In this document: positions 1-16,434 of the stretch, in pieces | Position numbering within the stretch: position 1 is the stretch's first letter | Layout: every line of letters starts with the position of its first letter | From: Escherichia phage vB_EcoM-P3322 | Direction: 5' to 3' (one strand) | Sequence record: PV191315.1 | DNA length: 64,000 bases | Notes under the pieces: generated by a model | What the model was told of the DNA's origin: nothing | The model's input: the letters and a program-made list of their open reading frames with translations, nothing else | The model's database searches: none | Translations under genes and position numbers: made by a program

Positions 1-222
1 TGGTAAAAGCATGTGTTGCTCATATTCAGCAAAAGTGTTTTTGTTAATCTCAAGCAAAGCACCCATCATAACATCATACTGATAATCTTTATGACCAGGA
101 TTGTTTAAAATAACATCTTCAAAGATATTAAGAAGAATCTTAGTAACAAAAGCATTGTTTTCGGCACCTTCCATCTGACGGATTACCGTGATTACTTCTT
201 TTTCTTTAGTGTTTTGGCTCAT
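1..222 (-). CDS. hypothetical protein (3' end cut by window edge)
   Basis: ATG at rc 220-222, 74 sense codons with no stop to position 1; begins MSQNTKEKEVITVIRQ. Confidence 0.45.
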   Translation of the reverse strand, partial: MSQNTKEKEVITVIRQMEGAENNAFVTKILLNIFEDVILNNPGHKDYQYDVMMGALLEINKNTFAEYEQHMLLP

Positions 223-412
223 AGTGTTTCTCCTCTGATTCTATTTGGATATAACCTGTGGTTTTGCACGGGTTACACTCGTAAATTTGACCTACATCCG
301 CCATAACATATCCTGCACCACCACAATAGGGACAAGGCATAGGAGGACAAGGTATGGACGTAGTGATTGTTACGACATTATCAATTTCCAACATTTTCGC
401 CATTATTACCAT
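206..412 (-). CDS. hypothetical small Cys-rich protein
   Basis: 68-aa ORF; CPPMPCPYCGG and CNPC motifs suggest a zinc ribbon. Confidence 0.45.
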   Translation of the reverse strand: MVIMAKMLEIDNVVTITTSIPCPPMPCPYCGGAGYVMADVGQIYECNPCKTTGYIQIESEEKHYEPKH

Positions 413-1988: not shown

Positions 1989-2184
1989 TTCTACCTCCTT
2001 CAATGCTTTGTGCCGTACCATCCCAAGCCATTAGAATGTTTTCCAATAGTTCACGAGGCTCTTTAAACCAAACTTCCATTTCATCAAGAATCTCGTCCGT
2101 GTCGTAAGTATAACCTGGAACACCAAGTTCACATTTCTTAAGATAGCTTTCTAACCAGCGGTGATAATTCTTAACCCCATTCAT
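1981..2184 (-). CDS. hypothetical protein
   Basis: 67-aa ORF in minus-strand array. Confidence 0.5.
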   Translation of the reverse strand: MNGVKNYHRWLESYLKKCELGVPGYTYDTDEILDEMEVWFKEPRELLENILMAWDGTAQSIEGGRNE

Positions 2185-2557
2185 ACTGTGCTACCTTTTC
2201 TTTTACCCAATCTACACGATCTTTATCATAATGTTGAGTGCCAAGGAAAAGACCATTGTGGAAACTTTCCTCACCGAAAGGATAAATTGGATCTAAACCA
2301 TCTTCTTCAAACAACATTTTTAATCTGTTTGATGTAGATTTCTTAGTTTCTGAATTGTAGTTTGTGGTTATAAGCCAATCTTCCAAACAACGACACAAGC
2401 CTTGACGAGAATCCCAAGGAAAAACACAATCTCCGACAGGAGCTTGTTCCGCCCATTTCAACCAACCTTTAAAAAAGTTATACAATATGTAGTCTTCAGT
2501 GTAATACATTAGCGCCTCCTTTACATATACAATAACACCCCGCAGAACGGGGTGCAA
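2171..2557 (-). CDS. hypothetical protein, paralog family A
   Basis: Shares GLC...YPF...R(V/I)xWVKxR motif set with 5 other ORFs in 2-15 kb. Confidence 0.55.
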   Translation of the reverse strand: MHPVLRGVIVYVKEALMYYTEDYILYNFFKGWLKWAEQAPVGDCVFPWDSRQGLCRCLEDWLITTNYNSETKKSTSNRLKMLFEEDGLDPIYPFGEESFHNGLFLGTQHYDKDRVDWVKEKVAQYEWG

Positions 2558-2560
2558 CTA

Positions 2561-3172
2561 TTATTTAATCTGTTTAAAAATTTCGTTTGGAACGGTACCG
2601 TTTAAAATACCTTCTACGATCTCTTGTGCAGATGTGTAAGAGAGTCCAAAAGAAGCTACGCCTAAAATTGCCTCCTTCAAAGGATCTGGCAGGGGTTCAA
2701 AATTACCTGCAACAAAGCCACCTGCACAAGCAGCGCCTTCATCATCCCAGAAAACAACTGCTACATCGTTACCATGCGAAGTTGTGCGATGTGCAATAAC
2801 TTCAACTTCGGTGCCTTCTTTAGGAATAGAATAAGAACTGTCCCAAGAATATCTTTCCAAATCAGGAACAAAGATAACCTTTACACCTACTGGCGGCAGT
2901 TCACAACGATAATACCAAGAATTTTTTTCGTTCATTGTTTTATTTTCCTCCACGTCTTCAAAAGTAACGATCCAATCGTAGCCGTAAGAAAACGGATATT
3001 TTAGATCTAAAGAATAAGTTTGACCCAGATCGTCCTCAACAAGAACCATCCTATCAAAGTTTGCGATGTTAGGATTATGTTTAATGACAGGATATGTTTC
3101 CCCTACAGTAAATTGTCCCAAATGGTAAAGTTCATCTCTCCAAGTAATTTGGATATGAGTGCATTGAATCAT
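2561..3172 (-). CDS. hypothetical protein
   Basis: 203-aa ORF, no recognised motif. Confidence 0.55.
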   Translation of the reverse strand: MIQCTHIQITWRDELYHLGQFTVGETYPVIKHNPNIANFDRMVLVEDDLGQTYSLDLKYPFSYGYDWIVTFEDVEENKTMNEKNSWYYRCELPPVGVKVIFVPDLERYSWDSSYSIPKEGTEVEVIAHRTTSHGNDVAVVFWDDEGAACAGGFVAGNFEPLPDPLKEAILGVASFGLSYTSAQEIVEGILNGTVPNEIFKQIK

Positions 3173-3176
3173 AAAA

Positions 3177-3449
3177 TCACCCCCAAGAAATATTTATATA
3201 TCTTACAATGTTTGCACTGTCTAAAGCCATGTTTGCACCACACCCACGCTCGCGCCAGTAACTAACAATACCTTCACAGATACTCTCTTGTATCTTCTTA
3301 TCACTTGGCATTTCTAGTATAAGACTTGGGTTGTGGATGTTTATGTTATAATATCCTTCCTCTGCGGCTTGAGCTACCAATTTACTTACTTTTTCAAAGT
3401 ACGGGGAATTAGTGGCATCTGCCATTGTTTTTAAGGTTTGTCTATCCAT
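3177..3449 (-). CDS. hypothetical protein
   Basis: 90-aa ORF in minus-strand array. Confidence 0.5.
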   Translation of the reverse strand: MDRQTLKTMADATNSPYFEKVSKLVAQAAEEGYYNINIHNPSLILEMPSDKKIQESICEGIVSYWRERGCGANMALDSANIVRYINISWG

Positions 3450-3814
3450 TATTCTGCCTCATCATAGAAGAAATCCAACTCTTGTTCCAGTTGTTTAACT
3501 CGATCCTTAACCCACTGTACACGTTTTTCATTAAACATGCAACGTTTTTCCTTACACTCTTGCTCAAAAGATTTTGCTGTGTTAAATGGGAAAGTTGTAT
3601 CTAAGCCAGCGTTTTCAAAACTGGCTAATTGCATACCATAAACAGAATATGCTAAAGAATGCTCGGCCCGAAATTCATCACTTATATACATACGTAGACC
3701 TCGGCATAAGCCAACATCAGCGTAACCACTTTCTCTTGGAAAGAGCCGGAGGTGTTCTAACCAATTATTATAGAAATCTAAAAGAATCCTCTTACACTTC
3801 AAATCGATTGTCAT
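3449..3814 (-). CDS. hypothetical protein, paralog family A
   Basis: Start at internal ATG (rc 3812-3814) with GAAGGAGA RBS; GLC / FPF / RVQWVKDR motifs. Confidence 0.55.
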   Translation of the reverse strand: MTIDLKCKRILLDFYNNWLEHLRLFPRESGYADVGLCRGLRMYISDEFRAEHSLAYSVYGMQLASFENAGLDTTFPFNTAKSFEQECKEKRCMFNEKRVQWVKDRVKQLEQELDFFYDEAE

Positions 3815-4214
3815 AAAAAGTTTCTCCTTCATCAAACAAGTTGGCAAGATTGTTCACGGCAATCTGGGTGGAAAGAAGACAACTGTTTGCAGACACATAA
3901 GCACGAGCTATTTTGTAAACATAGACTTTCGTATTACAATTATCTAGGATCGGAAGACTTTCGTCGATAGCATCTATAACACTAAACATCACATCTAAAA
4001 CTTTAATGGTGAGTGTTGTATTTGTATCTTCGTAACCTTTTTCAATCCGACCTGAATAGAAAGCATAGTCCTCAACAGTTCGTCGTTTAAACTGGCGCAT
4101 AAAATCGGAACCATCTGTAGCAGAATTGAACAAATTTTCAAAAAATACGTCCCATCCGGCAAAAAGGGCTGACAGCATGATTAAGTGATCTACAGATTCA
4201 TTTTCTTGTTTCAT
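3792..4214 (-). CDS. hypothetical protein
   Basis: 140-aa ORF in minus-strand array. Confidence 0.5.
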   Translation of the reverse strand: MKQENESVDHLIMLSALFAGWDVFFENLFNSATDGSDFMRQFKRRTVEDYAFYSGRIEKGYEDTNTTLTIKVLDVMFSVIDAIDESLPILDNCNTKVYVYKIARAYVSANSCLLSTQIAVNNLANLFDEGETFYDNRFEV

Positions 4215-4222
4215 ATCCTCTC

Positions 4223-4900
4223 CTATTTAATGTTCAGTCTGGCACACAAACGAGAAACAGTTTTAGCATCCCATTTACCACCACGTGCTGTTGCTATTTT
4301 CTTACTATTGAATTTTTCAGCAATAGTTTTGTAAGGGGTATTTAAATCTCTAAGGATCTCCAAGCGTTCACGGAATGTCTCTGCAAAAGCGTCTGCTTTA
4401 ACAGAATTGTATTCCATTTTTCCTTTTCTACGTGCAGCGGCAGTTTTAGGATTAGCACTGCCTAATAAAACACCTTTACTTTTTGCTACAGCAAGACCCT
4501 TTTTAATACGATCAGCAATACCTCTAACTTCTTGTTCAGCCAGAACAGACAGAAGCTGTATAACCATTTTATCTGCGTCTGGCATAATGGCTATCTTAAC
4601 ATCGATCATTTCTAGAAGAGTTGCTACGGAGGCGTTGTTACGACCCAAGCGGTCAACTTTAGCTACCAATAAAGTTGCTCCGGTAGCTTTACACATTTCA
4701 ACCGCTTTAACCAGTTCCTTACGTTGCTTCCAATCGCCCTTACCCGAATAGTATTCAGAAAATTGACCAATAACTTCCGCATCAGGCACAGAGTCTAAGA
4801 AGTAACGGATATCATTCTCTTGGCTCTCCATACCATATTGTGCCTCACCTTTTTTCTGTTTAGAAAGACGACTGTAAACAACAAACTTTTTCATAACCAC
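4223..4900 (-). CDS. small serine recombinase (resolvase/invertase family)
   Basis: N-terminal VYSRLSKQ catalytic-Ser region, LLVAKVDRLGRN signature, C-terminal basic HTH-like tail; own promoter. Confidence 0.8.
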   Translation of the reverse strand: MVMKKFVVYSRLSKQKKGEAQYGMESQENDIRYFLDSVPDAEVIGQFSEYYSGKGDWKQRKELVKAVEMCKATGATLLVAKVDRLGRNNASVATLLEMIDVKIAIMPDADKMVIQLLSVLAEQEVRGIADRIKKGLAVAKSKGVLLGSANPKTAAARRKGKMEYNSVKADAFAETFRERLEILRDLNTPYKTIAEKFNSKKIATARGGKWDAKTVSRLCARLNIK

Positions 4901-4923
4901 TCCTAAACTATTGCTGTATTCTC

Positions 4924-4952
4924 ACTTTACAAAACGAATAAACACTTGTCAA
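4924..4952 (-). promoter_or_regulatory. sigma70-like promoter of recombinase gene
   Basis: rc strand TTGACA (4947-4952), 17-nt spacer, TAAAGT (4924-4929); AGGAG RBS follows. Confidence 0.5.
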
Positions 4953-4964
4953 GGTATTTATTAT

Positions 4965-5177
4965 TTACAGCCATTCTACTCTTAAGCAGTATTCCTCGAC
5001 ATGTTGTTTACGCTTGTTTTTGTCTATGTAAGTGTATTCAACAAATGTCCCAAGATAGTCCTTGTCTACATTGTGTGGGCTATTGATTGGACATTTAGTA
5101 CGACAAACCCGTTGCCACTGACGAAGAATTACGGCTTTGTTTTTAGGATCAAAGGGATGAGGGTAATGTACCTTCAT
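4965..5177 (-). CDS. hypothetical protein
   Basis: 70-aa ORF. Confidence 0.45.
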   Translation of the reverse strand: MKVHYPHPFDPKNKAVILRQWQRVCRTKCPINSPHNVDKDYLGTFVEYTYIDKNKRKQHVEEYCLRVEWL

Positions 5178-5501
5178 TCACGCCTCCTGTTTTAGTCGAA
5201 AAATATTTTGAATAACTAGAGATGTATAGTTATCACCTAGTCCCATAAGTTCTACTTCCAAGTTTCGAATATCCTCCACCGTAGGAGGATATGTTGGTAA
5301 AAATGCTTGAGCATTACCAGATCCAACTTCATTGCTGTAAGCAGTTGTAAAATTGTAAGATACAAAACATGAAACACCTTTTTGTCGGTACCCGATTAAT
5401 CGACGAATACACCAGATAAGAGCCAAACCTATGAGAACACCTCCTAAACCAGCTAACAAGAAGGATAAGTTCATAATAGCTTCGTTAACAACTGCTTCCA
5501 T
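5178..5501 (-). CDS. membrane protein
   Basis: 107 aa; N-terminal hydrophobic helix LSFLLAGLGGVLIGLALIW. Confidence 0.5.
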   Translation of the reverse strand: MEAVVNEAIMNLSFLLAGLGGVLIGLALIWCIRRLIGYRQKGVSCFVSYNFTTAYSNEVGSGNAQAFLPTYPPTVEDIRNLEVELMGLGDNYTSLVIQNIFRLKQEA

Positions 5502-5511
5502 TCTTTTCTCC

Positions 5512-5811
5512 TTAGTTATGTAAACCCAAATGTGCTACAACTTCTCTACGATAAGACAACTGCATAGCGATTTTATAGCCAGGATGAAAACCATTTACAT
5601 CAATGTCATCAAACCAAATCTCAAACGAACCGTGCTTAAGAGTCATTAAGTTGATATACCATTCGATAATATAATGATCGTCAGCAATACCTTCGATGTA
5701 AAATTCTCGGCAACAGTGAGATAGGTCTTCACTCGTTTCACGTTTCCAGTCTTTGATAGCACCCTTCTCTTTGGCTTTATTCAGAATCTGGATCAGGTCT
5801 TCAACTTGCAT
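5512..5811 (-). CDS. hypothetical protein
   Basis: 99-aa ORF. Confidence 0.5.
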   Translation of the reverse strand: MQVEDLIQILNKAKEKGAIKDWKRETSEDLSHCCREFYIEGIADDHYIIEWYINLMTLKHGSFEIWFDDIDVNGFHPGYKIAMQLSYRREVVAHLGLHN

Positions 5812-5864
5812 TTTCTCTCCTTTTGTGGTTAATCTTTATATTTTAAATATTGCACCGTTTTCTG

Positions 5865-6278
5865 TCAAATAGCCTCTTTCTCTAAAACAACTCTTTGGAT
5901 CACAACATCTTCAATGTTTGCCAAACAATGACCCAAAGTCAATCCCGCCTTGAAAGGTGCTTGTAGCTTGGATTCGGCTTCTACGCGAACAGAATGTTCC
6001 GCTCCGCACATGGTGTAATCTACACGGTAAACGTTTAAACCTAAGAACATAGATTCTTCTTCTTCACAACAAGGATTGAGTTCAGCCCAGTCCCAAGCAT
6101 CTCCTTCTAAAGCAAATGGAGTGTTGTAATTGAAGAAAGTGCAGCGCGGATATTCCCCGTTGAAAGAATCTTTCAGCAGAATATATTTCTTACCGTTTGC
6201 ATGGAAGAGTTCTCCTTTGATAACCTTACCTACAAGGATATCACTGTTAGTGGAACGGGTGCAAATAAACTTTTTCAT
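5865..6278 (-). CDS. hypothetical protein
   Basis: 137-aa ORF. Confidence 0.55.
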   Translation of the reverse strand: MKKFICTRSTNSDILVGKVIKGELFHANGKKYILLKDSFNGEYPRCTFFNYNTPFALEGDAWDWAELNPCCEEEESMFLGLNVYRVDYTMCGAEHSVRVEAESKLQAPFKAGLTLGHCLANIEDVVIQRVVLEKEAI

Positions 6279-6332
6279 GATTTTCTCCTCTTTGTTTCGA
6301 TGAGATGATTATGACAAAGACAGATCCTTCTG

Positions 6333-6659
6333 TCAACTATTTATTTCTTCTGCTACACGTTCTTTTACCCAGTTCACACGATCCACATTCAAATGACAAC
6401 GGCTTTTTTCCGCTTCTAAGGTGTACTTTCCAAAATTACTGTTGAAAGGCAACACCATAACCAAATCTTTGTGGTAGAACTGCTCATGCATTTCATCCAG
6501 TACGGGTTCGTATCGTTCGCTTTCACCCATATCGTAAAAATCATAGAGGTTCGAGCACAAACCTGTGCAACGGGTGAACGGTTCGCCTTCAGGAGCACCA
6601 GCTTCCAACCATGCCAAATACGTGCGGTAAAATGTTAATAGTTCTTCGCTCATTTCCAC
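6333..6659 (-). CDS. hypothetical protein, paralog family A
   Basis: FYxxYLAWLEAGAP...GLC...LPF...RVNWVKER; closest to 7092-7418. Confidence 0.55.
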   Translation of the reverse strand: MEMSEELLTFYRTYLAWLEAGAPEGEPFTRCTGLCSNLYDFYDMGESERYEPVLDEMHEQFYHKDLVMVLPFNSNFGKYTLEAEKSRCHLNVDRVNWVKERVAEEINS

Positions 6660-6868
6660 TCTCCTTCATGATAGTAAACCTCAAAAGAATAGTAAGTGAA
6701 CATGCTCATTGTAACACCTGCCATTTCTGGATCAACGGAAGTGTTGTTATACATGTCAACTACTGCCTGACCCGCTGCTTTGGCATGTGCTGCCGAATCA
6801 CAAGCACAAACATCTTTCTCCCACGGAAACTTGCCATCATACTTAAGACGCACAATCCACATGATCAT
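6650..6868 (-). CDS. hypothetical protein
   Basis: 72-aa ORF. Confidence 0.45.
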   Translation of the reverse strand: MIMWIVRLKYDGKFPWEKDVCACDSAAHAKAAGQAVVDMYNNTSVDPEMAGVTMSMFTYYSFEVYYHEGEWK

Positions 6869-7092
6869 TCTTCCATCTCAAACCATTCAGGGAACACTTT
6901 GCGGAAGACCCGCGTGTTTTCTAAGAGAAATTCCAACTCTTTTTCCAAATCTGCGTTCCAACCGTTTATTTTAACACGGATTGCCAATGCACTTGCACGG
7001 CGACTCAATTCTTGACAGATTGGATCACGCAGAACTATTGAGTCATAAAACTGACAAACAGCCTCAAGTTCATACCAGTTATAATCCGACAT
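6865..7092 (-). CDS. hypothetical protein
   Basis: 75-aa ORF. Confidence 0.45.
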   Translation of the reverse strand: MSDYNWYELEAVCQFYDSIVLRDPICQELSRRASALAIRVKINGWNADLEKELEFLLENTRVFRKVFPEWFEMEE

Positions 7093-7418
7093 TATTCATC
7101 CTCCTCTGCAATACGATCTCTTACCCAATTAATCCTGTCCACATTCAGGTGACATACCTCTGCATCTGATTCTAAGACATATGCATCGTAGTTCTCATTG
7201 AAGGGTAATTCTTGACTCAACCCTTTGTGGTAAAACTGTGCGTGCATTTCATCTGCCAAGGTTGTTATAAGGGGATTGTAGCCATCCGCGTGCACATAGT
7301 CGAATAAGTTGGCACACAAACCGCAATCCCGCCGAAAAGGTTTACCATCAGGAGCACCAACATCAATCCATGCTAGATAAATTTTATAAAACTCCATCAA
7401 CCTTGCGCTTGTTTTCAT
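7092..7418 (-). CDS. hypothetical protein, paralog family A
   Basis: FYKIYLAWIDVGAP...GLC...LPF...RINWVRDR. Confidence 0.55.
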   Translation of the reverse strand: MKTSARLMEFYKIYLAWIDVGAPDGKPFRRDCGLCANLFDYVHADGYNPLITTLADEMHAQFYHKGLSQELPFNENYDAYVLESDAEVCHLNVDRINWVRDRIAEEDE

Positions 7419-7656
7419 TTAGCCACCTCGTTAGTTTTTCTTGCTCTTTGTTTGCGCGTTCTAAGCTTCTGAACTTTAAACAGAGGGAACGAGAATCCCT
7501 ACCCATGCACAAGCTTTCATCTAAGCTGTGCTCCCCAACCAACCAAAGAGAGTATGTTTGAACATCTAACCCATAGTTTCTGTCTTTCCATAATCTCACC
7601 CCAAGAACATCAAAAGGCGCTTCCGCGACTAAAGAAAGAAACCGATCTTTATTCAT
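7384..7656 (-). CDS. hypothetical protein
   Basis: 90-aa ORF; 3' end overlaps next gene start. Confidence 0.4.
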   Translation of the reverse strand: MNKDRFLSLVAEAPFDVLGVRLWKDRNYGLDVQTYSLWLVGEHSLDESLCMGRDSRSLCLKFRSLERANKEQEKLTRWLNENKRKVDGVL

Positions 7657-7714
7657 ATTACACCACCTTGCTCACGTTGATAATGTACACCATACATAAA
7701 ATAAATGTCAAGGC

Positions 7715-7933
7715 TTATCGACACAGATGGTTGTAACGATCTGCTTTATCCTCTGCTTCAGCAAAGTCAGCAATCAAGGAAGTTTTGAGTTCTTCCAACT
7801 CTTTCACCCAAGAGTCGTAATCGTTCTGTGTTTCTCCAATAGTTTGGAGAAAACAATCGTCGTAGCCAATAGACATGGCTAACTCGATAATACGTTCCAG
7901 TTTTTCTTCCATCACTTCTCTCCTTCTACACAC
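7715..7933 (-). CDS. hypothetical protein
   Basis: 72-aa acidic ORF. Confidence 0.45.
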   Translation of the reverse strand: MCRRREVMEEKLERIIELAMSIGYDDCFLQTIGETQNDYDSWVKELEELKTSLIADFAEAEDKADRYNHLCR

Positions 7934-8274
7934 TTCTGTTTAACATAGAAGTAAGCACCACGAGCAAGATACAAATCATGTTCAATATCGCTCACAGGAA
8001 AACCATCTGGATTTTTAAAGCCATCTTCTACAGCCAAAATGAGAGATCGTAAACTGATAGCTAACAACTCCATTTGATCTTGTAGTTTTCTATTTTCTGC
8101 GTAAAGGTTTTTGCATTTTTGTTCTGCATTTTTCCATTGTTCTAGTGCATGATCATAGCGGTGCATAAGAATAGCTTTTTCTTGTTCACGCTTAAAAGTT
8201 TCTTCACAAATGAAACCCGTGCCTAAACCAGTTTCTTCATCTTTAACAAATACTTCAACAAAATCTTTAGACAT
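7912..8274 (-). CDS. hypothetical protein
   Basis: Start moved to internal ATG (rc 8272-8274, MSKDFVEV...) with AGGAGA RBS. Confidence 0.5.
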   Translation of the reverse strand: MSKDFVEVFVKDEETGLGTGFICEETFKREQEKAILMHRYDHALEQWKNAEQKCKNLYAENRKLQDQMELLAISLRSLILAVEDGFKNPDGFPVSDIEHDLYLARGAYFYVKQKCVEGEK

Positions 8275-8275
8275 A

Positions 8276-8539
8276 TTATCTCCTATTTGCTTTTGGATAC
8301 TCCCAACCCTCTGGGAGATCTTCTTTACACATCCACTCAAAAGGCCAGCGACAATAACTGTGCCACTTTCCATCGAGATACAAGCAATCTTCATCTACTG
8401 GTCCACAAGGGTTGATAACTACAACACACCCTTTCGCTCGCCAATATTGAACTATTTCAGGGTAAAAACAAGAAACGTCGGTCCACTCCCAAATACGCTC
8501 ATCATTCAAACGGTATGCTGCTGGCAATGTTTCTTCCAT
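8276..8539 (-). CDS. hypothetical protein
   Basis: 87-aa Trp/Cys-rich ORF. Confidence 0.5.
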   Translation of the reverse strand: MEETLPAAYRLNDERIWEWTDVSCFYPEIVQYWRAKGCVVVINPCGPVDEDCLYLDGKWHSYCRWPFEWMCKEDLPEGWEYPKANRR

Positions 8540-8543
8540 ATTA

Positions 8544-8990
8544 TTAAACCTCTGTCAAAGAGAAACGCCAATCCTTACTACTACCTACACCAAGGAAGAT
8601 ATAGTTTCCGGTACTAACGGAATATCTCCAAGCGGGAATCCAATCAGGAATCTCTGGCTTATGGCTGTAGCCATAACGCTCGCCACTCGAATCTGTTGCA
8701 ATATAATTAACAAATTCAGGAACCTCTAAAGTTTCACCTTGATACTCTACACGCTTGAAGCCATCTTCCACTTCTTTCTCACCTTCTACCAGACAAGCAA
8801 GAAGTTTGATGTGAGGGCAAGTGAAATCTTGTCCTGGATAACGTGAACGGATATCGGTTAACAATGCGATCACAGCATCCGATAACTCTTTATAATCCTC
8901 ATATCTTACAAATGTGCCTTCTGTCGGATCATCAGGACACAAACGCCAAGCATCGTTGCAGTTTACAGCATAATGTCGCACTTTAGTCAT
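8544..8990 (-). CDS. hypothetical protein
   Basis: 148-aa ORF. Confidence 0.55.
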   Translation of the reverse strand: MTKVRHYAVNCNDAWRLCPDDPTEGTFVRYEDYKELSDAVIALLTDIRSRYPGQDFTCPHIKLLACLVEGEKEVEDGFKRVEYQGETLEVPEFVNYIATDSSGERYGYSHKPEIPDWIPAWRYSVSTGNYIFLGVGSSKDWRFSLTEV

Positions 8991-9000
8991 AAATACCCCC

Positions 9001-9399
9001 TTATCGTTGCGTACAATCAGCTTCTAGAGTAAGAACATTCGTTATTGTTTTATCATTTTTTAGAAATGCAAACCAAGCTAAAGTGTCTCGATACTCTGTG
9101 CGCATCATCACAACTTCAGTAGTGCCAATAAACTGTTGTGAACCATACATAGCACTACCATCTTTACTTTTTTCTCCTGTGTATTGCAGAATGCCACTCA
9201 TCAAAGCACCACCTGAATTTTTAAGGATAAAGGAGTTATCTTTATTAATGACAACAGAAGCCATTTTCTTAGGACCAGAAATCACTTCACCTTTCAGATT
9301 TTTAACAACCACATCTGACACACACTCATAAACTTGAGACGCATTTGCTGTTCCGAGTGATGCAATGAGTAACAATAAACCTACGATGATCTTTTTCAT
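9001..9399 (-). CDS. secreted/periplasmic protein
   Basis: N-terminal signal peptide MKKIIVGLLLLIASLGTANA. Confidence 0.6.
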   Translation of the reverse strand: MKKIIVGLLLLIASLGTANASQVYECVSDVVVKNLKGEVISGPKKMASVVINKDNSFILKNSGGALMSGILQYTGEKSKDGSAMYGSQQFIGTTEVVMMRTEYRDTLAWFAFLKNDKTITNVLTLEADCTQR

Positions 9400-9494
9400 A
9401 TAAACTCTCCTCTTTATTTACCCGACGCGCCCCTGTTGGGCGGAAAGGGTTGTACGCAAAATTTTTAGCTCCAATCGTCGGGTGTCCCGACTCC

Positions 9495-9701
9495 TTACGC
9501 TTTTAATGTTTTAACAGAATGACAAGCTTTGCAAACCATAACCGGAACAAGTTCGTCTCCACTGTCCGCATAAATCACTGTTTTCTTCATTCTGCTACCA
9601 CATGAACAATACTCTGTATGATCCGCTGGAATATTAAATATTCCGTAATCACTTTCATACTGTTTCTTACATATGGACACTGCTTTTGTAAAACGAGACA
9701 T
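9495..9701 (-). CDS. hypothetical Cys-rich protein
   Basis: 68 aa with CSCG...CKAC pairs (zinc-ribbon-like). Confidence 0.45.
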   Translation of the reverse strand: MSRFTKAVSICKKQYESDYGIFNIPADHTEYCSCGSRMKKTVIYADSGDELVPVMVCKACHSVKTLKA

Positions 9702-9703
9702 AC

Positions 9704-9925
9704 CTACTCCGCAAGAACATTCACTTCGTCAGAGAAAAATACGTAATCACAACCTTCCCAAACATCTTCTTCAAACCACTCCCATCCCTCAACTTTGGAC
9801 ATTTCTTCTATCGTAACAAAGAATGTTGTCATATCATCGCTAACAAGATGCGCTTCAACAACAAAAGGAATCTGAACATTCTCAAAACCAACATAACCCA
9901 ATACATCACAAACTCTAATTTTCAT
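9704..9925 (-). CDS. hypothetical protein, paralog family B
   Basis: Shares W(E/F)W...DYVFF motif with 13957-14187. Confidence 0.5.
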   Translation of the reverse strand: MKIRVCDVLGYVGFENVQIPFVVEAHLVSDDMTTFFVTIEEMSKVEGWEWFEEDVWEGCDYVFFSDEVNVLAE

Positions 9926-9926
9926 A

Positions 9927-10127
9927 TTATGCTCCTTTGTAGATTATGTTGGTGCGTTCACACTCTGCCACCAGCAAGCGATTAGCAATGTTGTCCATAG
10001 GAACATCAATCTCTACGCTCCAGGCATTGATATACACTTCTTCAATCTTTGCTCCAAGCATTTGTGCGATCAGAGCAACAGCCCCAGCATATTCAAGTTT
10101 AATCTCAATTACCATTTTGCACCTCAA
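9927..10127 (-). CDS. hypothetical protein
   Basis: 66-aa ORF. Confidence 0.45.
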   Translation of the reverse strand: MRCKMVIEIKLEYAGAVALIAQMLGAKIEEVYINAWSVEIDVPMDNIANRLLVAECERTNIIYKGA

Positions 10128-10129
10128 GG

Positions 10130-10330
10130 TTATTTATCTTGCTTGTATCTTACAAGGCGATCACACTCCAGGTCAAGAAATTTCTCCGCATTTCGTTCGT
10201 GTTTGAGCACAATACATTGTTCTTTCCAGTCTGTAGCTCTTTGCTGCGCTGCTCCTGGGTCAAAATCCCAAAGCCATGCCGCGAAAAGAACAACCATAAC
10301 AATTACTAAGAAACTAAACACTATTGGCAT
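10130..10330 (-). CDS. small membrane protein
   Basis: Start at internal ATG (rc 10328-10330) with AGGAGG RBS; TM helix IVFSFLVIVMVVLFAAWLW. Confidence 0.45.
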   Translation of the reverse strand: MPIVFSFLVIVMVVLFAAWLWDFDPGAAQQRATDWKEQCIVLKHERNAEKFLDLECDRLVRYKQDK

Positions 10331-10635
10331 TGCACATCCTCCTGTGTAGCATGGTCTTTTACCCATTTTATACGGGCAGCATTCAAATGCAATAGCCCGT
10401 TTCTTTGTGCAAAATCATATTTAAACCAGTCTCCGTCATCAAACGGGTATTCTTCAGACAATCCTGCCTCACGGAATTGCATTTGCATTTCATAATTTAG
10501 ATCATCATAACCTCCAGTCCAAAGGTAGAGGCAACTACATAATCCTTTATCATGCCAGAAAGGATTATTATCTGGAGCACCAGCTAATAGCCAATTATGA
10601 TATGCCTGATAAAATTCTTTAAGTTCCTCTGACAT
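10321..10635 (-). CDS. hypothetical protein, paralog family A
   Basis: FYQAYHNWLLAGAP...GLC...YPF...RIKWVKDH. Confidence 0.55.
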   Translation of the reverse strand: MSEELKEFYQAYHNWLLAGAPDNNPFWHDKGLCSCLYLWTGGYDDLNYEMQMQFREAGLSEEYPFDDGDWFKYDFAQRNGLLHLNAARIKWVKDHATQEDVQCQ

Positions 10636-10812
10636 TTAACCTCCTGTATATAGTGTTGAAAGATACACAGCAAAAGCATTCTCGGCTGTTTTCACCTCCT
10701 CTTCAAGATCTTCACGCTCTGCTGGCGTTAATGCATTCCGCACAGCAGCGTCTGCTTCTCGGATTTTTCTTACTAAACGTGAAACATCTTTCAGTTGTTG
10801 AAAAGTAGCCAT
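10636..10812 (-). CDS. hypothetical small protein
   Basis: 58-aa ORF (MATFQQLKDV...); stop overlaps next ATG (GGAGGTTAAATG). Confidence 0.4.
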   Translation of the reverse strand: MATFQQLKDVSRLVRKIREADAAVRNALTPAEREDLEEEVKTAENAFAVYLSTLYTGG

Positions 10813-10827
10813 AGTCTTTCTCCTGTT

Positions 10828-11187
10828 TTAGTGAGTGTCGCGCCATTCGGCAATCTCTTCGGCTAAACGATCACAAGAATCGAAAGCCACTTTACCTTCG
10901 CCAGGGTAGTTCCAGAAGACACCCCGTGAATCTGTAATGTTTATATGATACTTGTCCCACATCTCTTTTGCAAGTGGTCGATCAACATATCCTTCAAAAT
11001 ATACTTCAGTTTCTGCTGAATATGGAGTGTAATCGCTGGCAGCAAAAGCGTTCTGGAAGATCACCATCACATTACGTGTTGTGCTTGGATGCATCAATTG
11101 GTGAAATTTTAACAATCTTCCGTTGATCCTAACAACATCTCCTTCAAACAAGGAGATATCTTTTACTTTACGAAATTCTCCGCTCAT
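10828..11187 (-). CDS. hypothetical protein
   Basis: 119-aa ORF. Confidence 0.55.
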   Translation of the reverse strand: MSGEFRKVKDISLFEGDVVRINGRLLKFHQLMHPSTTRNVMVIFQNAFAASDYTPYSAETEVYFEGYVDRPLAKEMWDKYHINITDSRGVFWNYPGEGKVAFDSCDRLAEEIAEWRDTH

Positions 11188-11196
11188 TTTACCCCC

Positions 11197-11388
11197 TTAA
11201 TACACATCTCCTACAAACCAGATTTCTGGATCGCCATACTGATCCTTCTCGTAAGATTTATAGACACTACAGCAATATTTCAAAACACCATCGACAAGGA
11301 TTGTTGATCTTTCTTCTGGAATCTCTGTGATTTCACCTTTGCGGGTTTCGAAGATGGTATCACCCTTTTCAATCAGTCTGATTTTCAT
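11197..11388 (-). CDS. hypothetical protein
   Basis: 63-aa ORF. Confidence 0.45.
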   Translation of the reverse strand: MKIRLIEKGDTIFETRKGEITEIPEERSTILVDGVLKYCCSVYKSYEKDQYGDPEIWFVGDVY

Positions 11389-11587
11389 ATCGTACTTCCT
11401 TCAATGCGAGTAATGCATTTACCAGATTATCAACACCTTGATCATCCAGTGCGATAACATCGAAGTTAAACCCTGTGTCAGTTGGGACTTTACGTTTTAT
11501 GGTGTAATAGTCCCCTTCATGACGTTCAACATACACGTATGGGTAACTGCTGTTCGGATCATGTTTCACGCGAATAGATGTTTTCAT
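11369..11587 (-). CDS. hypothetical protein
   Basis: 72-aa ORF. Confidence 0.45.
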   Translation of the reverse strand: MKTSIRVKHDPNSSYPYVYVERHEGDYYTIKRKVPTDTGFNFDVIALDDQGVDNLVNALLALKEVRYENQTD

Positions 11588-11602
11588 GTTTTGTTCTCCT
11601 CT

Positions 11603-11854
11603 TTAGTCAAACCAGTTGTATTCAGAAGGGTAACGAGCGTAGTTTGGCTTATACCCCAGCCTTTTCATCTTGACAGACATACGAGTGAAGCCAAAAGTTG
11701 TTTTGCCCTTAGACATAAACTTCTTCCCACTCTTCATTGGCTTCTTAGGGTCTTTGATCGTCTGGTGTAACGCTCGCGCAAGCCACAAAGTGTATGCGCT
11801 CGGCACTTGATTAACTTTCATCTTGTTACCTTTCATCATTTTACCTCGGACCAA
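11603..11854 (-). CDS. small basic protein
   Basis: 83 aa, Lys/Arg-rich (possible nucleic-acid binding). Confidence 0.5.
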   Translation of the reverse strand: MVRGKMMKGNKMKVNQVPSAYTLWLARALHQTIKDPKKPMKSGKKFMSKGKTTFGFTRMSVKMKRLGYKPNYARYPSEYNWFD

Positions 11855-12135
11855 TCAATAGTGATCCACTCGTATGCCCCGTTCAGATCCATTTCTTTAT
11901 AAACAATAAGCCCACGCTCACGAAGAATTGCTACTGCTTCATCCATCCACTTCACCTGATTGTAGATCTGCTCTGGGTGGGTGGGAGAATTATTCAGACC
12001 AAAATCGGATGGCGTGAAATTTCTTGAAGAGTTTCCCGCTCGGGCTTCAGCAAAACATGTCTCGATCACTTCTTCAACAGGGAAATTGAAGGAAGCTTCT
12101 TTTGCAATACGGCGTAACTGTTCGGTCAGATTCAT
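11836..12135 (-). CDS. hypothetical protein
   Basis: 99-aa ORF. Confidence 0.5.
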   Translation of the reverse strand: MNLTEQLRRIAKEASFNFPVEEVIETCFAEARAGNSSRNFTPSDFGLNNSPTHPEQIYNQVKWMDEAVAILRERGLIVYKEMDLNGAYEWITIDWSEVK

Positions 12136-12162
12136 CTTATTCTCCTTTCGTTGTGCGAAACA

Positions 12163-12600
12163 TTATAACAGATCTAATGCTTTCAACTCTTCTTTCAATG
12201 ATTCAGGCAGGTCACATTCAATGTCAATCAGAGATAACAAGTGACCAACAATGCCTTCCAGATGTTGATACTCACTATAACTTATAAATTCAGAATTGTA
12301 AACAGAAACATCCTTAGTTTCTTTCACAACTTCCCCCGCAGACACGCACATAAAAAAGTTACGCTCTCCGCGAGCTAACAATATCTCCCAACTCCTGAAC
12401 GGATACTGTCCAGCTTCAATAATATCTCCACTGTCCAGTAAAGTCAATGAGCAAACAGACCCTGATTCACTAACATCTTCGACGCGGAAACAAGACCCTT
12501 CAATCAAAGCTGCCATTTTGAAATTTTCATCAGAGATCATAGAGAAAGCTTCACATGCAGCTTTACTTTTGAAACAATAAACAGCATTAACTTTAAACAT
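12163..12600 (-). CDS. hypothetical protein
   Basis: 145-aa ORF. Confidence 0.55.
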   Translation of the reverse strand: MFKVNAVYCFKSKAACEAFSMISDENFKMAALIEGSCFRVEDVSESGSVCSLTLLDSGDIIEAGQYPFRSWEILLARGERNFFMCVSAGEVVKETKDVSVYNSEFISYSEYQHLEGIVGHLLSLIDIECDLPESLKEELKALDLL

Positions 12601-12612
12601 AACATTCCCCTT

Positions 12613-13068
12613 TTAAACAAAAGATACGCCGATGGTAGCAACAACCAAACGTTTATAAACTTCAACCTCTTCTGTAGGATTAGCCATTTTATGCTCTGCT
12701 GCTTCTTTCAAAGCTTCTTCATAACTTTCAAATCCAGAAATACAGGTGTCATCAGTCATTACAACATACCACTCTTCTTTTGTTGTATCAACAGGTTCTT
12801 CTTGGGGTTTTCCACGACCACCGCGAATACCACCGTCAACAAAATAATCTATATGAGCAGAATTGATTATGTAACGATCCCCATCACTAGCAGTGATAAT
12901 ACCGTCTCTCCCTATCACAACAATTGACAAGATATTACCATTTGCATCAGTGCTCAACACCTCGAAAAAATTCTCTCCAATGATAGCAGCAATACTGTTA
13001 TCAAAGGTAGAATATAGTCGCATATAATCCTCATCCTGGAAACGGTAGACATGACCTTCTTTAAACAT
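12613..13068 (-). CDS. hypothetical protein
   Basis: Start moved to internal ATG (rc 13066-13068, MFKEGHVYRF) with AAGGAG RBS. Confidence 0.55.
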   Translation of the reverse strand: MFKEGHVYRFQDEDYMRLYSTFDNSIAAIIGENFFEVLSTDANGNILSIVVIGRDGIITASDGDRYIINSAHIDYFVDGGIRGGRGKPQEEPVDTTKEEWYVVMTDDTCISGFESYEEALKEAAEHKMANPTEEVEVYKRLVVATIGVSFV

Positions 13069-13246
13069 TGTATGCTCCTTCTTGTTCAAGAGTAAAAGGA
13101 ATGATCTCACCATAGCTGTATTGCATGGCATCCACTTCTGCTTCTGCACGTTGTGCTAGTTCTAATGTTGCACAGATCTTGTAAGGGACAGTGCTGCATT
13201 GGCTCCAGCCTGGGTATTCTTTGTTACTAAATATACAGTAGTTCCT

Positions 13247-13708
13247 TTATTCATAACTTTCTCCTCTTAGTTCATCATACCATTTCAAAGCGTCTTTTGG
13301 AAGCATACCAAAATCTTCTTTTAGTTCTTTTTCAATCTCTTCTTGCATTTCCATCAGCGTTTTCAGTTGACGGACTTTTTTGTGCATAGCCACATTCCTT
13401 TCATTAAGGTTTGTCACTACATTATTTGCACGACTTGGTGGAAATGACAAAGGTTTCACGGGAAGATAATCTTCGATATTATCTAGTGCGTTACGAAAAT
13501 TATGATCCAAGAAACGTACATCTACACGATTGTAATCGGCAGCTACAACAGTGAACACTTTAAACGGCACATTGGATAAAGTATGTTGCACATAGACAGT
13601 ACCCATATTGCCTTCAATTTTACTATTAACTTCCAGCAAACCTGTATGAGCACTAACATAATCGTGAACACATTGCACATAAGCTGCCAGTATAGTGAAT
13701 TGTCTCAT
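13247..13708 (-). CDS. hypothetical protein
   Basis: 153-aa ORF. Confidence 0.55.
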   Translation of the reverse strand: MRQFTILAAYVQCVHDYVSAHTGLLEVNSKIEGNMGTVYVQHTLSNVPFKVFTVVAADYNRVDVRFLDHNFRNALDNIEDYLPVKPLSFPPSRANNVVTNLNERNVAMHKKVRQLKTLMEMQEEIEKELKEDFGMLPKDALKWYDELRGESYE

Positions 13709-13953
13709 TTTCTACCTCCCCATAATGCTAACATTTTATTGAAAATGGAAACGCGTCGTGCGCGAGATGCCATATCATAATTCATTCTTTCCGTCTCTGC
13801 AAGAAATTGATCTACTGTAATCAACGCTTTTGTCTTCTCTTTCAGAGTTTGCATATTCATCCATTCACATTCAGAATACCAATTATCGAAATACAAACTA
13901 TCAAGAAGATCCATTGCTGCTTCGTTCTGCTGTGGTGTGATCATTGCACACAA
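13705..13953 (-). CDS. hypothetical protein
   Basis: 82-aa ORF. Confidence 0.45.
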   Translation of the reverse strand: MCAMITPQQNEAAMDLLDSLYFDNWYSECEWMNMQTLKEKTKALITVDQFLAETERMNYDMASRARRVSIFNKMLALWGGRK

Positions 13954-13956
13954 CCT

Positions 13957-14187
13957 TTAATAGACAATTTCATATTCGTGAGGAAAGAAAACATAATCTT
14001 CCCCTTCTCGTGCATCTATCTCGTCCCAAAACCATTCCTGCACTTCCATCATCTTCGAGAATCGCACATGAGCAAGCCCACTGTATTCCACCGTAGCTTC
14101 CAGCACAAGTGGAAATTTTGCATGTGCCAATCCTTTATAACCACCATCATTCTCAATACGAATTTTCATGCGTTTCATATTATGCAT
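13957..14187 (-). CDS. hypothetical protein, paralog family B
   Basis: EWFWDE...EDYVFF motif shared with 9704-9925. Confidence 0.5.
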   Translation of the reverse strand: MHNMKRMKIRIENDGGYKGLAHAKFPLVLEATVEYSGLAHVRFSKMMEVQEWFWDEIDAREGEDYVFFPHEYEIVY

Positions 14188-14389
14188 CCTTCAGACCCTT
14201 AATGAAATAACGACCAACCGGATTCCCTCGGAAGTATTCGTTAATGAAATCGATAACACACGTTTCACTACCTGTCACAACGGACGGTGCGAAGTTTCGG
14301 AACTGCACGAGTACACGACTTGCGTTAGCAAGGGTGTGCACACGATCAGTGTTAGCTAAATACAAGGATACAGTTTTCAAATTCTTCAT
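14180..14389 (-). CDS. hypothetical protein
   Basis: 69-aa ORF. Confidence 0.45.
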   Translation of the reverse strand: MKNLKTVSLYLANTDRVHTLANASRVLVQFRNFAPSVVTGSETCVIDFINEYFRGNPVGRYFIKGLKDA

Positions 14390-14438
14390 TTCATCTCCTC
14401 ATTGGCTATCTGTTATGTCATCCATTATACAAACATCT

Positions 14439-14813
14439 TTATTCAAAGCAAACATTATTTGCATCTTCAATTCTGTCTTTCACCCATTGAAGACGTAACG
14501 TGTTGGTATGACACGCCAAGTTTATACACTCTGAAAGGTAATCCATGCAATCTGCATTGAACGGAAGATTGTAGTCCAGCCCTGCACATGTAAACTGTTT
14601 CCTCATTTCGTATTTCAAACTATCCAACAAACGATCACGCCATCTTTTATCTTCTTCTCTGGTTGTCTCACCAACAAAATCATCTACATAATCTACCAGA
14701 CAACCACATAAGCCACTCGTTGTGCGATTCATTGCAGGATAGTTGGCAATCCATGCTTTATAGAAGCGAAGCAATGTTGCACTACTCAACGGAATATTTT
14801 TACTCTCTTGCAT
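14439..14813 (-). CDS. hypothetical protein, paralog family A
   Basis: FYKAWIANYP...GLC...LPF...RLQWVKDR. Confidence 0.55.
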   Translation of the reverse strand: MQESKNIPLSSATLLRFYKAWIANYPAMNRTTSGLCGCLVDYVDDFVGETTREEDKRWRDRLLDSLKYEMRKQFTCAGLDYNLPFNADCMDYLSECINLACHTNTLRLQWVKDRIEDANNVCFE

Positions 14814-14819
14814 GACAAT

Positions 14820-16391
14820 CTCCTCTCATCGTTAGCCATCTTTCATGGCAATCATCAATCACCAACATCATACGATCAATCTCAGGGAATTACAATCGAA
14901 TTATCATAGGGGATTCCTATCAATTATCCCATATATACCGATTATTTTTGACACCCCACTCTTGTATAAAAAGTAACCCAAAATATCTACGGGGAGAGAT
15001 TATTTCGGGACACCCTGTTTCATGGCAATCATGGCAAGAATATCTAATAGAATCAATATCATATGGCAAAAATCATGACGCATACGTAAGAAGTGCTTAA
15101 CGCGAATTTTCGGGCCGTCAGGTCCACGCAGCGACAATTCCCAAATATCATGAGAATGAGAATAATTATCATTCGTATTCAATGACTTATGCAAGGCTCA
15201 TGCCAACATAGCGACAAGGTGGGCCACTTGATTATAAATCACACAAACACTTATTTATCAATAGGTTGGCAACTTCATCATATGACGGAACATTGTCAAC
15301 TGATCCCGCTCATGACAAGCAGACTATTATTTATATGAGAATGATTATTATTTAAACGTTTATTAACATAAAAATTAAAATAAATCAAGAATTTTCTGAT
15401 TTTATTTACGTTTAAGAGAAGATGCTCAACATCCTACCGGATCGCCGTTGGCAATCCTCGGATATTTACGCCCCCATGATTAAGGTTTATCTCTTTTCTT
15501 AGTGCTCAACATTCCCGCCCGTGGCGGTAACATTTCGCCCCCAAAATTATTGCTTTTTATTCTATTATGTGCATAGTGTGCAATGTATCGGAATGATGAT
15601 AATCATCCTCCCATTGCCCCCATAATTATTGCCATGCTAATGATTTCATCTTGTAATTACCACAATGATTATTGTTATTGCGCTAATGTTATGATCTTGG
15701 TAATTACATATAATGCTAATAATAAGCCAGCGCAATAAGTGTAAGCGTCATTACGCTTGCAATTATTGCAAGCTACGCAGTAACAAGAAATAACCATCAC
15801 CGATGGTTATGATTGTTGGGGTGTAGTTGGCTTATTATTAGCTCGCTATGTGTCCGGCATAGCGTGCTAATGATGATCCTGGGAATGATTCGTTTTGTAA
15901 TGATTTCATTCAGTCACTATTATGGCAATAGTTATTATTTTAATGGTTTCGTTTGTTATTGTTCGTTAGTTGGTTGTTTTGTCGTGTTATCGTTATCTTG
16001 CTTAGTATTCATCATGGTTTGATTGTTTGTCGTTATCAATCATCTTGCTATTATTCCTTTGATTATGATTAGTTTGCTTATTGTTTTAGGTTGTTGGTTA
16101 GTTAGTTGTTGCGAACTATTATCAACATTATAGTTATGCACTTATATTGCATAGATAAACATGGATAGATGATAATGGTTATCATTGAACTAGAAAAGAG
16201 GTAAAAGGGTGTTTTTGATGGTTTGTTGTTGGTTGTTGATCGATTTTAACCGCTATAAATGGCTCTCTAACAGCCTGTTACCCTGGGAGGTATGGTTATT
16301 CGTTTAATGGTTGATTAGCTCGATACCGCGATTTATTCAATTTTGTTCTGTGTCGGTTTTTCATAGGCGAAAGCTATCAACATTGTTCGGG
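14820..16391. other. 1.6-kb non-coding AT-rich region with GATAAT/ATCATT palindromes and short repeats
   Basis: No credible ORF; palindromes GATGATAATCATC (~15596) and TGATAATGGTTATCA (~16166), AAGCGTCATTACGCTT, GCAATTATTGC; recurring GCTAATGAT and GAGAATGA motifs. Confidence 0.5.
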
Positions 16392-16428
16392 CAAAAAGAA
16401 AGGGCGCTTGGTGCGCCCCTTGTTTTGT
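16392..16428 (-). terminator. bidirectional intrinsic terminator-like hairpin
   Basis: GGGCGCTTGGTGCGCCC stem-loop flanked by A-run and T-run; just downstream of 16435-16854. Confidence 0.55.
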
Positions 16429-16434
16429 TGTCGC

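Follow-up and report, generated by a model that had tools for sequence, protein, structure and literature searches.

Six anciently duplicated copies of an N4 gp3-like protein family in the small-gene cluster of Escherichia phage vB_EcoM-P3322

T7 Ocr, the ArdA-type DNA mimics, and T4 AsiA are examples of phage inhibitors that are small and acidic, are made early, and work by binding. The ea genes of the lambdoid pL region (lambda ea22 and ea8.5, and the P22 eaA-type) are early accessory genes that are non-essential and of unknown function. The proteins considered here are related to gp3 of coliphage N4, which is not mentioned and is assigned no role in N4 reviews (PMC4496689). The subject of this study is a set of six open reading frames (ORFs), designated A1 to A6, on the minus strand of a 64,000-nucleotide stretch of Escherichia phage vB_EcoM-P3322 (sequence record PV191315.1), the whole of which is referred to as the window. 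All six encode one phage-specific, acidic, five-helix domain of about 105 amino acids that was duplicated long ago, and they are members of the N4 gp3-like family PHROG 2510/VOG7392. As in Ocr, the ArdA-type mimics, and AsiA, the window proteins are small and acidic (isoelectric points, pI, of 4.5-5.3), and they are predicted to be helical, cytoplasmic, and early-encoded. The ea genes resemble the family in placement: in a lambdoid prophage the domain is one module of a 441-amino acid protein (P0173, which also matches PHROG 60) encoded between the repressor gene and xis/int, and in phi92 two genes annotated as "potential Eaa-like" come directly after the member gp010. However, no sequence or profile match to the Ea family was obtained, and this likeness is positional only.

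The original prediction, made from the DNA letters and their translations, described a six-member paralogous small-protein family, and all six of its ORFs proved to be homologous. The copies are A1 (2171..2509, 112 amino acids), A2 (3449..3814, 121 amino acids), A3 (6333..6653, 106 amino acids), A4 (7092..7418, 108 amino acids), A5 (10321..10635, 104 amino acids), and A6 (14439..14813, 124 amino acids); they are dispersed over 12.6 kb within a run of approximately 45 small genes, all on the minus strand, and each is preceded by a Shine-Dalgarno box. The six proteins align over their full length with 15 invariant columns, among them GLC, PF, and RxxWV. Pairwise identities by BLASTP range from 23 to 51%, with A3 and A4 the closest pair (51%, E = 6e-41) and A1 and A6 the weakest (23%, E = 0.09, not significant alone); the weak pairs are joined to the family because a profile ties them together. 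A hidden Markov model (HMM) of the six copies scores its own members at 141, 135, 142, 156, 136, and 130 bits for A1 to A6, respectively, while the next best of 674 six-frame ORFs reaches only 8 bits; the window therefore contains exactly six copies and no seventh. When each copy was left out of the model in turn, the omitted copy scored 51-113 bits, compared with at most 10.4 bits for shuffled sequences (200 shuffles per copy), which is the opposite of the alignment no better than shuffled controls that had been named as evidence against a family. The proposed ordered motif set is right as a consensus, but is inexact in individual copies, since A1, A2, A5, and A6 all deviate from it. A1 has FF where the consensus has FY, the GAP...PF loop motif is missing from A2 and A6, A2 also lacks the usual Glu, Gln, and His, and the C-terminal motif is RVDWVKEK in A1 and RIKWVKDH in A5. 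A4 is the most consensus-like copy, while A1 and A2 are the most divergent.

All six ORFs are present where they had been placed, but two of the starts require correction. A1 had been extended to 2557, which is an upstream TTG extension; the gene is 2171-2509, because the ATG at 2509 is preceded by AAGGAGG, a hairpin lies inside the extension, and the orthologues are annotated as 339 nucleotides long. The hairpin (2535..2555, minus strand) lies between the upstream gene and the A1 start and is terminator-like by consensus match, with a 9-bp stem containing six GC pairs and a T-rich tail. For A3, the most likely start is the ATG at 6653 and not the alternative GTG at 6659, because an AAGGAGA box abuts the GTG and the orthologues are annotated as 321 nucleotides long.

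All six copies match PHROG 2510, with a best E value of 5.5e-32 (6e-27 over residues 4-110 for A1), and in the record of phage anhysbys the depositors tagged its seven copies as pVOG VOG7392. The HMM built from the window alone recognizes N4 gp3 (60 bits, E = 4e-17; 8e-24 for gp3 against PHROG 2510), the copies in phage PTXU04 (72-87 bits), phi92 gp006 (85 bits), and gp5 of Burkholderia phage JG068 (51 bits). Building such a model and searching phage sequences with it had been suggested as a check, and it revealed a widespread phage family: 1901 clusters were retrieved at E ≤ 1e-3 and 959 at E ≤ 1e-10 from a database of 1.84 billion representative proteins (clusters at 50% identity). A second homologue search with a broader alignment gave fewer matches and gained nothing. 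By tblastn, the family is present in 260 deposited phage records, and the N4-like phages of Escherichia, Achromobacter, and Erwinia alike conserve it. Most homologues are single-domain proteins of approximately 100-120 amino acids, but of 186 homologue sequences examined, 19 have two domains and two have three. Family members are alike in length, five-helix prediction, the GLC, PF, and RxxWV motifs, and early or accessory placement. They differ in number and arrangement: most phages have one to three copies, whereas the lineage of the window has five to seven dispersed over 12.6 kb, and the jumbo Burkholderia phages BcepSaruman and BcepSauron are among those in which two or three domains are fused in one chain.

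Membership in PHROG 2510 explains nothing mechanistically. Every source names the homologues "hypothetical protein," and even in the record of Shigella phage SF1-1, which has structure-based annotation, all of the copies are unnamed. Pfam returned only three sub-threshold chance matches for the six members (best E = 0.014) and likewise for diverse homologues; NCBIfam gave no match for the three copies scanned (A1, A4, and A6) or for diverse homologues; and none of the six members matches PADLOC at E ≤ 1. No paper citing PHROG 2510 or VOG7392 was found. Mentions of "gp3" in a paper on polyvalent proteins are unrelated to this family, and a transposon-mutagenesis preprint considered as a functional source covers unrelated phages. 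More than 100 GenBank phage genomes already contain near-identical genes, which PHROGs and pVOGs have clustered, so the paralogy is implicit in the databases.

The segment from 2000 to 15000 matches 125 phage records by megablast, 54 of which cover at least 80% of the query at 95-99% identity. The matches are all E. coli myoviruses of approximately 150 kb belonging to Phapecoctavirus (Stephanstirmvirinae), for example Mt1B1_P17, ESCO5, and phAPEC8. Each paralogue has a positional orthologue with 90-100% identity in five other E. coli phages (96-99% for A1 in six genomes, 98-100% for A2 and for A5), and Klebsiella phage ZCKP1 has orthologues of every paralogue except A4. The ratio of nonsynonymous to synonymous substitution rates (dN/dS) was estimated by the Nei-Gojobori method from orthologues in six genomes, with A2 falling outside the scoring through an ORF-overlap filter. 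The values are 0.10 for A1, 0.32 for A3 (the highest of any copy), 0.26 for A4, 0.28 for A6, and 0.018 for A5 (dN 0.005, dS 0.26), the most strongly conserved copy; the A6 clade is the most variable, with a dN of 0.076. Pooled, the family gives 0.17 and approximately 33 neighbouring genes give 0.16. Because the orthologues are 90-100% identical and the dN/dS values indicate purifying selection, the copies are old and individually maintained, and they are not rapidly diversifying. Residues that distinguish the paralogues yet are fixed in each set of orthologues are found throughout the sequence, outside the invariant core. A 225-amino acid gene in the middle of the cluster of this lytic phage (4223-4900, minus strand) has the lowest dN/dS in the region, 0.002; near-identical records variously call its product a recombinase, a resolvase, or a DNA invertase, and in Mt1B1_P17 it is annotated as a "methionine ABC transporter ATP-binding protein."

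Gene content in the genus ranges from five to seven family copies. ESCO5 lacks A3 and ZCKP1 lacks A4, while Mt1B1_P17 and anhysbys have a seventh copy, A7, adjoining A6. In the window, A6 is a recombinant in which the first 7-11 codons or so are A7-like (MQESKN...) and the remainder is A6. Relative to Mt1B1_P17, approximately 312 bp with A7 is missing, and the two BLAST segments overlap by 16 bp at window positions 14781-14796; the pattern in the alignment is that of a deletion of A7 by recombination between the tandem A6 and A7 copies. In a neighbour-joining tree without bootstrap, two phi92 copies group with the A6/A7 clade and the A2 clade (gp010 with A2), which suggests that the duplications may predate both the genus and its split from phi92-like phages. 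A more distant, 153-kb relative in IMG/VR (IMGVR_UViG_3300014004_000001) has six family copies within 15 kb. Only two of these match window paralogues, with 97% identity for A3 and 81% for A4, and the remaining four have 33-47% identity to any window copy.

Structure prediction, also suggested at the outset, gave a confident, compact helical model. The AlphaFold2 model of A4, from an alignment of 34 sequences, has a mean predicted local distance difference test score (pLDDT) of 94.2 and a predicted template modelling score (pTM) of 0.87, with five helices at residues 5-19, 34-42, 50-64, 77-85, and 93-107 joined by loops that are long, conserved, and confidently predicted. Foldseek of the model against BFVD found 17 viral proteins at E ≤ 1e-3 with TM scores of 0.70-0.86, all uncharacterised, from phages of Burkholderia, Rhizobium, Achromobacter, Delftia, Pectobacterium, Klebsiella, Erwinia, and Shigella, and more distantly of Pseudomonas. 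The same search against the PDB returned nothing at E ≤ 1e-3, and profile searches of PDB sequences gave no match. No structural likeness to a solved member of the Acb2, Tad1/Tad2, Ocr, ArdA, or AsiA groups was found, nor was a significant superposition on winged-helix or helix-turn-helix domains together with a basic DNA-binding surface. A natural two-domain fusion (P0042) is modelled as a single confident body (pLDDT 94.9, pTM 0.81) with a four-residue linker, which hints that its domains pack against one another.

Conservation was counted over 215 domains, with residues numbered as in A4. Cys35 and the pair Pro72-Phe73 are each kept in 214 of 215 domains (99.5%), and Arg95 is 98% conserved (211 of 212 aligned domains); Gly33, Leu34, Phe10, Phe62, Trp98, and Asn92 (93%) are also nearly invariant, and nine aromatic positions are conserved per 100 residues or so. 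Glu57, Gln61, Glu83, and His90 are conserved at 74-80% (His90 at 74%). In the six window copies the only invariant polar residues are the Cys and the Arg: Glu57 and Gln61 are missing from A1 and A2, His90 is missing from A2, and A1 has Asp at the position of Asn92. By helical periodicity, Cys35 and Leu38 would lie on one helix face, as would Asn92, Arg95, Trp98, and Val99 on another, and these two faces probably meet in the interior or in a pocket. An assignment to the HEPN nucleases was rejected: the conserved polar run H-x-N-x-x-R is the reverse of the Rx4-6H order, its His is only 74% conserved, and no HEPN chain is among the structural matches. A conserved metal site was rejected as well, since just 42% of domains have a second Cys before His90.

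The leftward cluster opens with A6, immediately downstream of a 1.6-kb stretch (14814-16434) without an ORF of at least 70 amino acids, which separates the small-gene cluster from the next minus-strand genes and within which several of the deposited Phapecoctavirus genomes have their start. The repeats found there are only short and weak. Upstream of A6 (14814..15028, minus strand), a consensus scan gave sigma-70-like promoter matches at 14895-14867 and 15028-14999. At the far edge of the non-coding stretch (16399-16421) is a GC-rich hairpin (AAGGGGCGC...GCGCCCTTT) with a terminator score on both strands. In the rV5-like phage Bas54, an intergenic region of approximately 2 kb is reported to tolerate no transposon insertions (10.1101/2025.11.20.689424). 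Since the cluster begins at a non-coding region by a likely genome end, it is probably one of the first parts of the genome to reach the cell interior and to serve as template for the host RNA polymerase (RNAP), and transcription in the window phage would accordingly be early.

Early or accessory small-gene regions are the common placement across phages. In the related phage phi92, the left terminal repeat (343 bp) occupies the place of the 1.6-kb stretch; the equivalent cluster follows it directly, and the member gp006 is at 2.3 kb. N4 gp3 is at 1.2 kb, directly after gp1 and gp2, which are cofactors of N4 RNAPII (PMC4496689), and the order is the same in an N4-like metagenomic contig. JG068 gp5 is flanked by annotated host promoters on one side and the early terminator on the other, and in a T1-like phage the member is within a small-gene cluster. 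No recurrent partner gene was found among the neighbourhoods viewed. One member is on a P1-like phage-plasmid; as this was the only plasmid match, the idea of a plasmid leading-region gene was abandoned. The Bas54 anti-defence gene bas54_0140, reported in the HIDEN-SEQ preprint, was judged unlikely, although not strictly disproved, to be a family member. In another metagenomic phage contig (L019), the member ends a tellurite-resistance-type cluster (TerC, two TerD, TerF-like, and TelA), directly before a PRTase_3 gene. Among the Vequintavirinae records returned, LTH01 alone covers the whole member-containing segment; five others match part of it (69%, in two pieces), and the family member there adjoins DNA polymerase genes. 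The gene adjoining the single family copy of Escherichia phage LTH01 (4718-5004) has approximately 80% nucleotide identity to a gene of many T-even phages that is annotated DUF5417 or lies next to frd.2, a likeness that suggests small-gene exchange between unrelated myoviruses.

The favoured reading, to which a probability of roughly 0.45 is given and which is therefore tentative, is that these are early accessory proteins, not essential to the phage, that share a scaffold and work by binding to host targets. They would be translated as cytoplasmic proteins from the leftward small-gene cluster, and a rigid common scaffold would be held by Phe10/Tyr11/Trp17, Gly33-Leu34-Cys35, Phe62, Pro72-Phe73, Asn92, Arg95, and Trp98-Val99. 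On this scaffold each paralogue would present its own surface, conserved within its orthologue group, and for that reason the copies may each bind a host protein of their own, or alternative forms of a single host or defence target. The natural two- and three-domain fusions suggest domain packing, so the single-domain copies may also act as homo- or hetero-dimers. PTXU04 has three tandem family copies, annotated "unknown" by HHpred, and each of them (PTXU04_00085, 86, and 87) was "Not Fit" in CRISPRi-ART knockdown, and hence dispensable on laboratory E. coli (PMC11879866, supplementary file 16). The original prediction had gone as far as anti-defence or host-takeover factors. Duplication, divergence, early position, a copy number of five to seven, and dispensability in PTXU04 fit this idea, but PADLOC, Pfam, NCBIfam, named homologues, and solved structures gave no direct link to a defence system or host target, and the label is a guess from context. 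Several observations weigh against binding on a common scaffold by early accessory proteins. A Cys that is 99.5% invariant and an Arg that is 98% invariant are out of the ordinary in a domain that serves only as a scaffold, and they could be signs of a pocket or an active site; the PTXU04 copies may be singly dispensable through mere redundancy; dN/dS gives no sign of antagonistic co-evolution; and the promoter scan found 69 matches where 52 were expected. Acidity is not distinctive either, as the neighbouring genes have a median pI of 5.2; being equally acidic, they also led to the rejection of acidity as a signal of DNA mimicry.

In the main rival reading, the domain would be a small ligand-binding or enzymatic module. 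Its pocket would be formed by Cys35 at the N-terminus of helix 2, by Arg95 and Asn92 on the side of helix 5 that faces inward, and by the loop Pro72-Phe73-Asn74, and it would bind or chemically modify a small molecule, such as a nucleotide-derived immune signal or a thiol-reactive metabolite, with the ligand differing by paralogue. The near-invariance of Cys, Arg, and Pro-Phe, Asn92 at 93%, the further polar positions at 74-80%, the nine aromatic positions, the predicted sharing of helix faces, and inter-helix loops that are long yet conserved and confidently modelled are all consistent with such a pocket. However, no polar residue apart from the Cys and the Arg is truly invariant, others are missing from A1 and A2, the 42% frequency of the second Cys leaves the domain without a conserved metal site, and the PDB offers no structural likeness to known nucleotide sponges or enzymes; such a module is considered unlikely. 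A more ambitious form of the same idea, in which the family is a new fold class of phage early effector with the Cys-Arg centre as its functional pocket and multi-copy phages carrying a specificity panel, acting as a sponge or modifier of a host signalling molecule or as a covalent trap for a host protein, is also unlikely. If it were true, this would be a major uncharacterised counter-defence or host-takeover family, because its approximately 1900 clusters come from phages both lytic and temperate that infect alpha-, beta-, and gamma-proteobacteria.

The repeated duplication and divergence proposed for the family are borne out by the 23-51% identity between copies, but host-driven diversification as an ongoing process has left no sign, with the pooled dN/dS being nearly that of the neighbours. 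That the copies are now diversifying under positive selection in a phage-host arms race would be in keeping with the variation in copy number, the A7/A6 recombination, the loss of A3 or A4 from some genomes, the four different family types in the same region of the related IMG/VR contig, and the variability of the end-proximal A6 clade; it is nevertheless distinctly unlikely, given that no copy exceeds a dN/dS of 0.32, that orthologues from E. coli phages and from Klebsiella phages share 90-100% identity, and that the duplications seem older than the split from phi92-like phages. The strong purifying selection, above all on A5, could instead reflect a phage-internal role as cofactors of early-to-middle transcription or replication with no action on host defences, and the member directly after the RNAPII cofactors in N4 and the N4-like contig, together with its conservation across the N4-like phages of three host genera, would suit such a role. 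Yet the family occurs in phages with unrelated transcription strategies (N4 with its virion RNAP, T7-like phages, host-RNAP-dependent myoviruses, T1-like siphoviruses, and lambdoid prophages), its copy number varies from one to seven with copies freely lost, the three PTXU04 copies are each dispensable, the N4 review gives gp3 no role, and acidic proteins are unlikely to bind DNA directly, which together make this role very unlikely. Chance similarity, or ORFs that are not genes, has as its sole point the insignificant A1/A6 pair and is already refuted by the leave-one-out scores, the Shine-Dalgarno boxes in all copies, purifying selection, homologues in the thousands, and the confident fold prediction.

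The window has other small families and motifs. A second, two-member paralogous family in the same cluster (9704-9925 and 13957-14187, minus strand; 37% identity, E = 9e-11) was also noted; Shigella phage SF1-1 has an orthologue of 9704-9925 under the annotation "protein ea8.5." The plus strand encodes another three paralogous pairs, of which two are adjacent: 37565-37873/37873-38178 (44%), 59609-60559/60567-61511 (41%), and 23953-24390/26921-27154 (54%), with identities over the aligned parts. The small ORF 206-412 (minus strand) has a DnaJ-type CxxCxGxG zinc-finger repeat; in prophage protein P0173 a motif of the same kind follows the family domain as a C-terminal fusion, P0157 has a fused zinc ribbon, and phi92 gp025 is a "DnaJ-like zinc finger" gene in the same cluster as the phi92 members.

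For now, these genes are a well-supported "hypothetical protein family" and not a discovery. The reach of the family extends over lambdoid prophages, phages of the T7-like and T1-like kinds, and the model phages N4 and phi92, and if it acts on host targets it would rank with the more widespread of the early phage domains that are still uncharacterised. Since genetics can be done in N4 and PTXU04, the family is directly testable, and the six conserved, diverged copies in one genome provide a ready comparison set for determinants of specificity.

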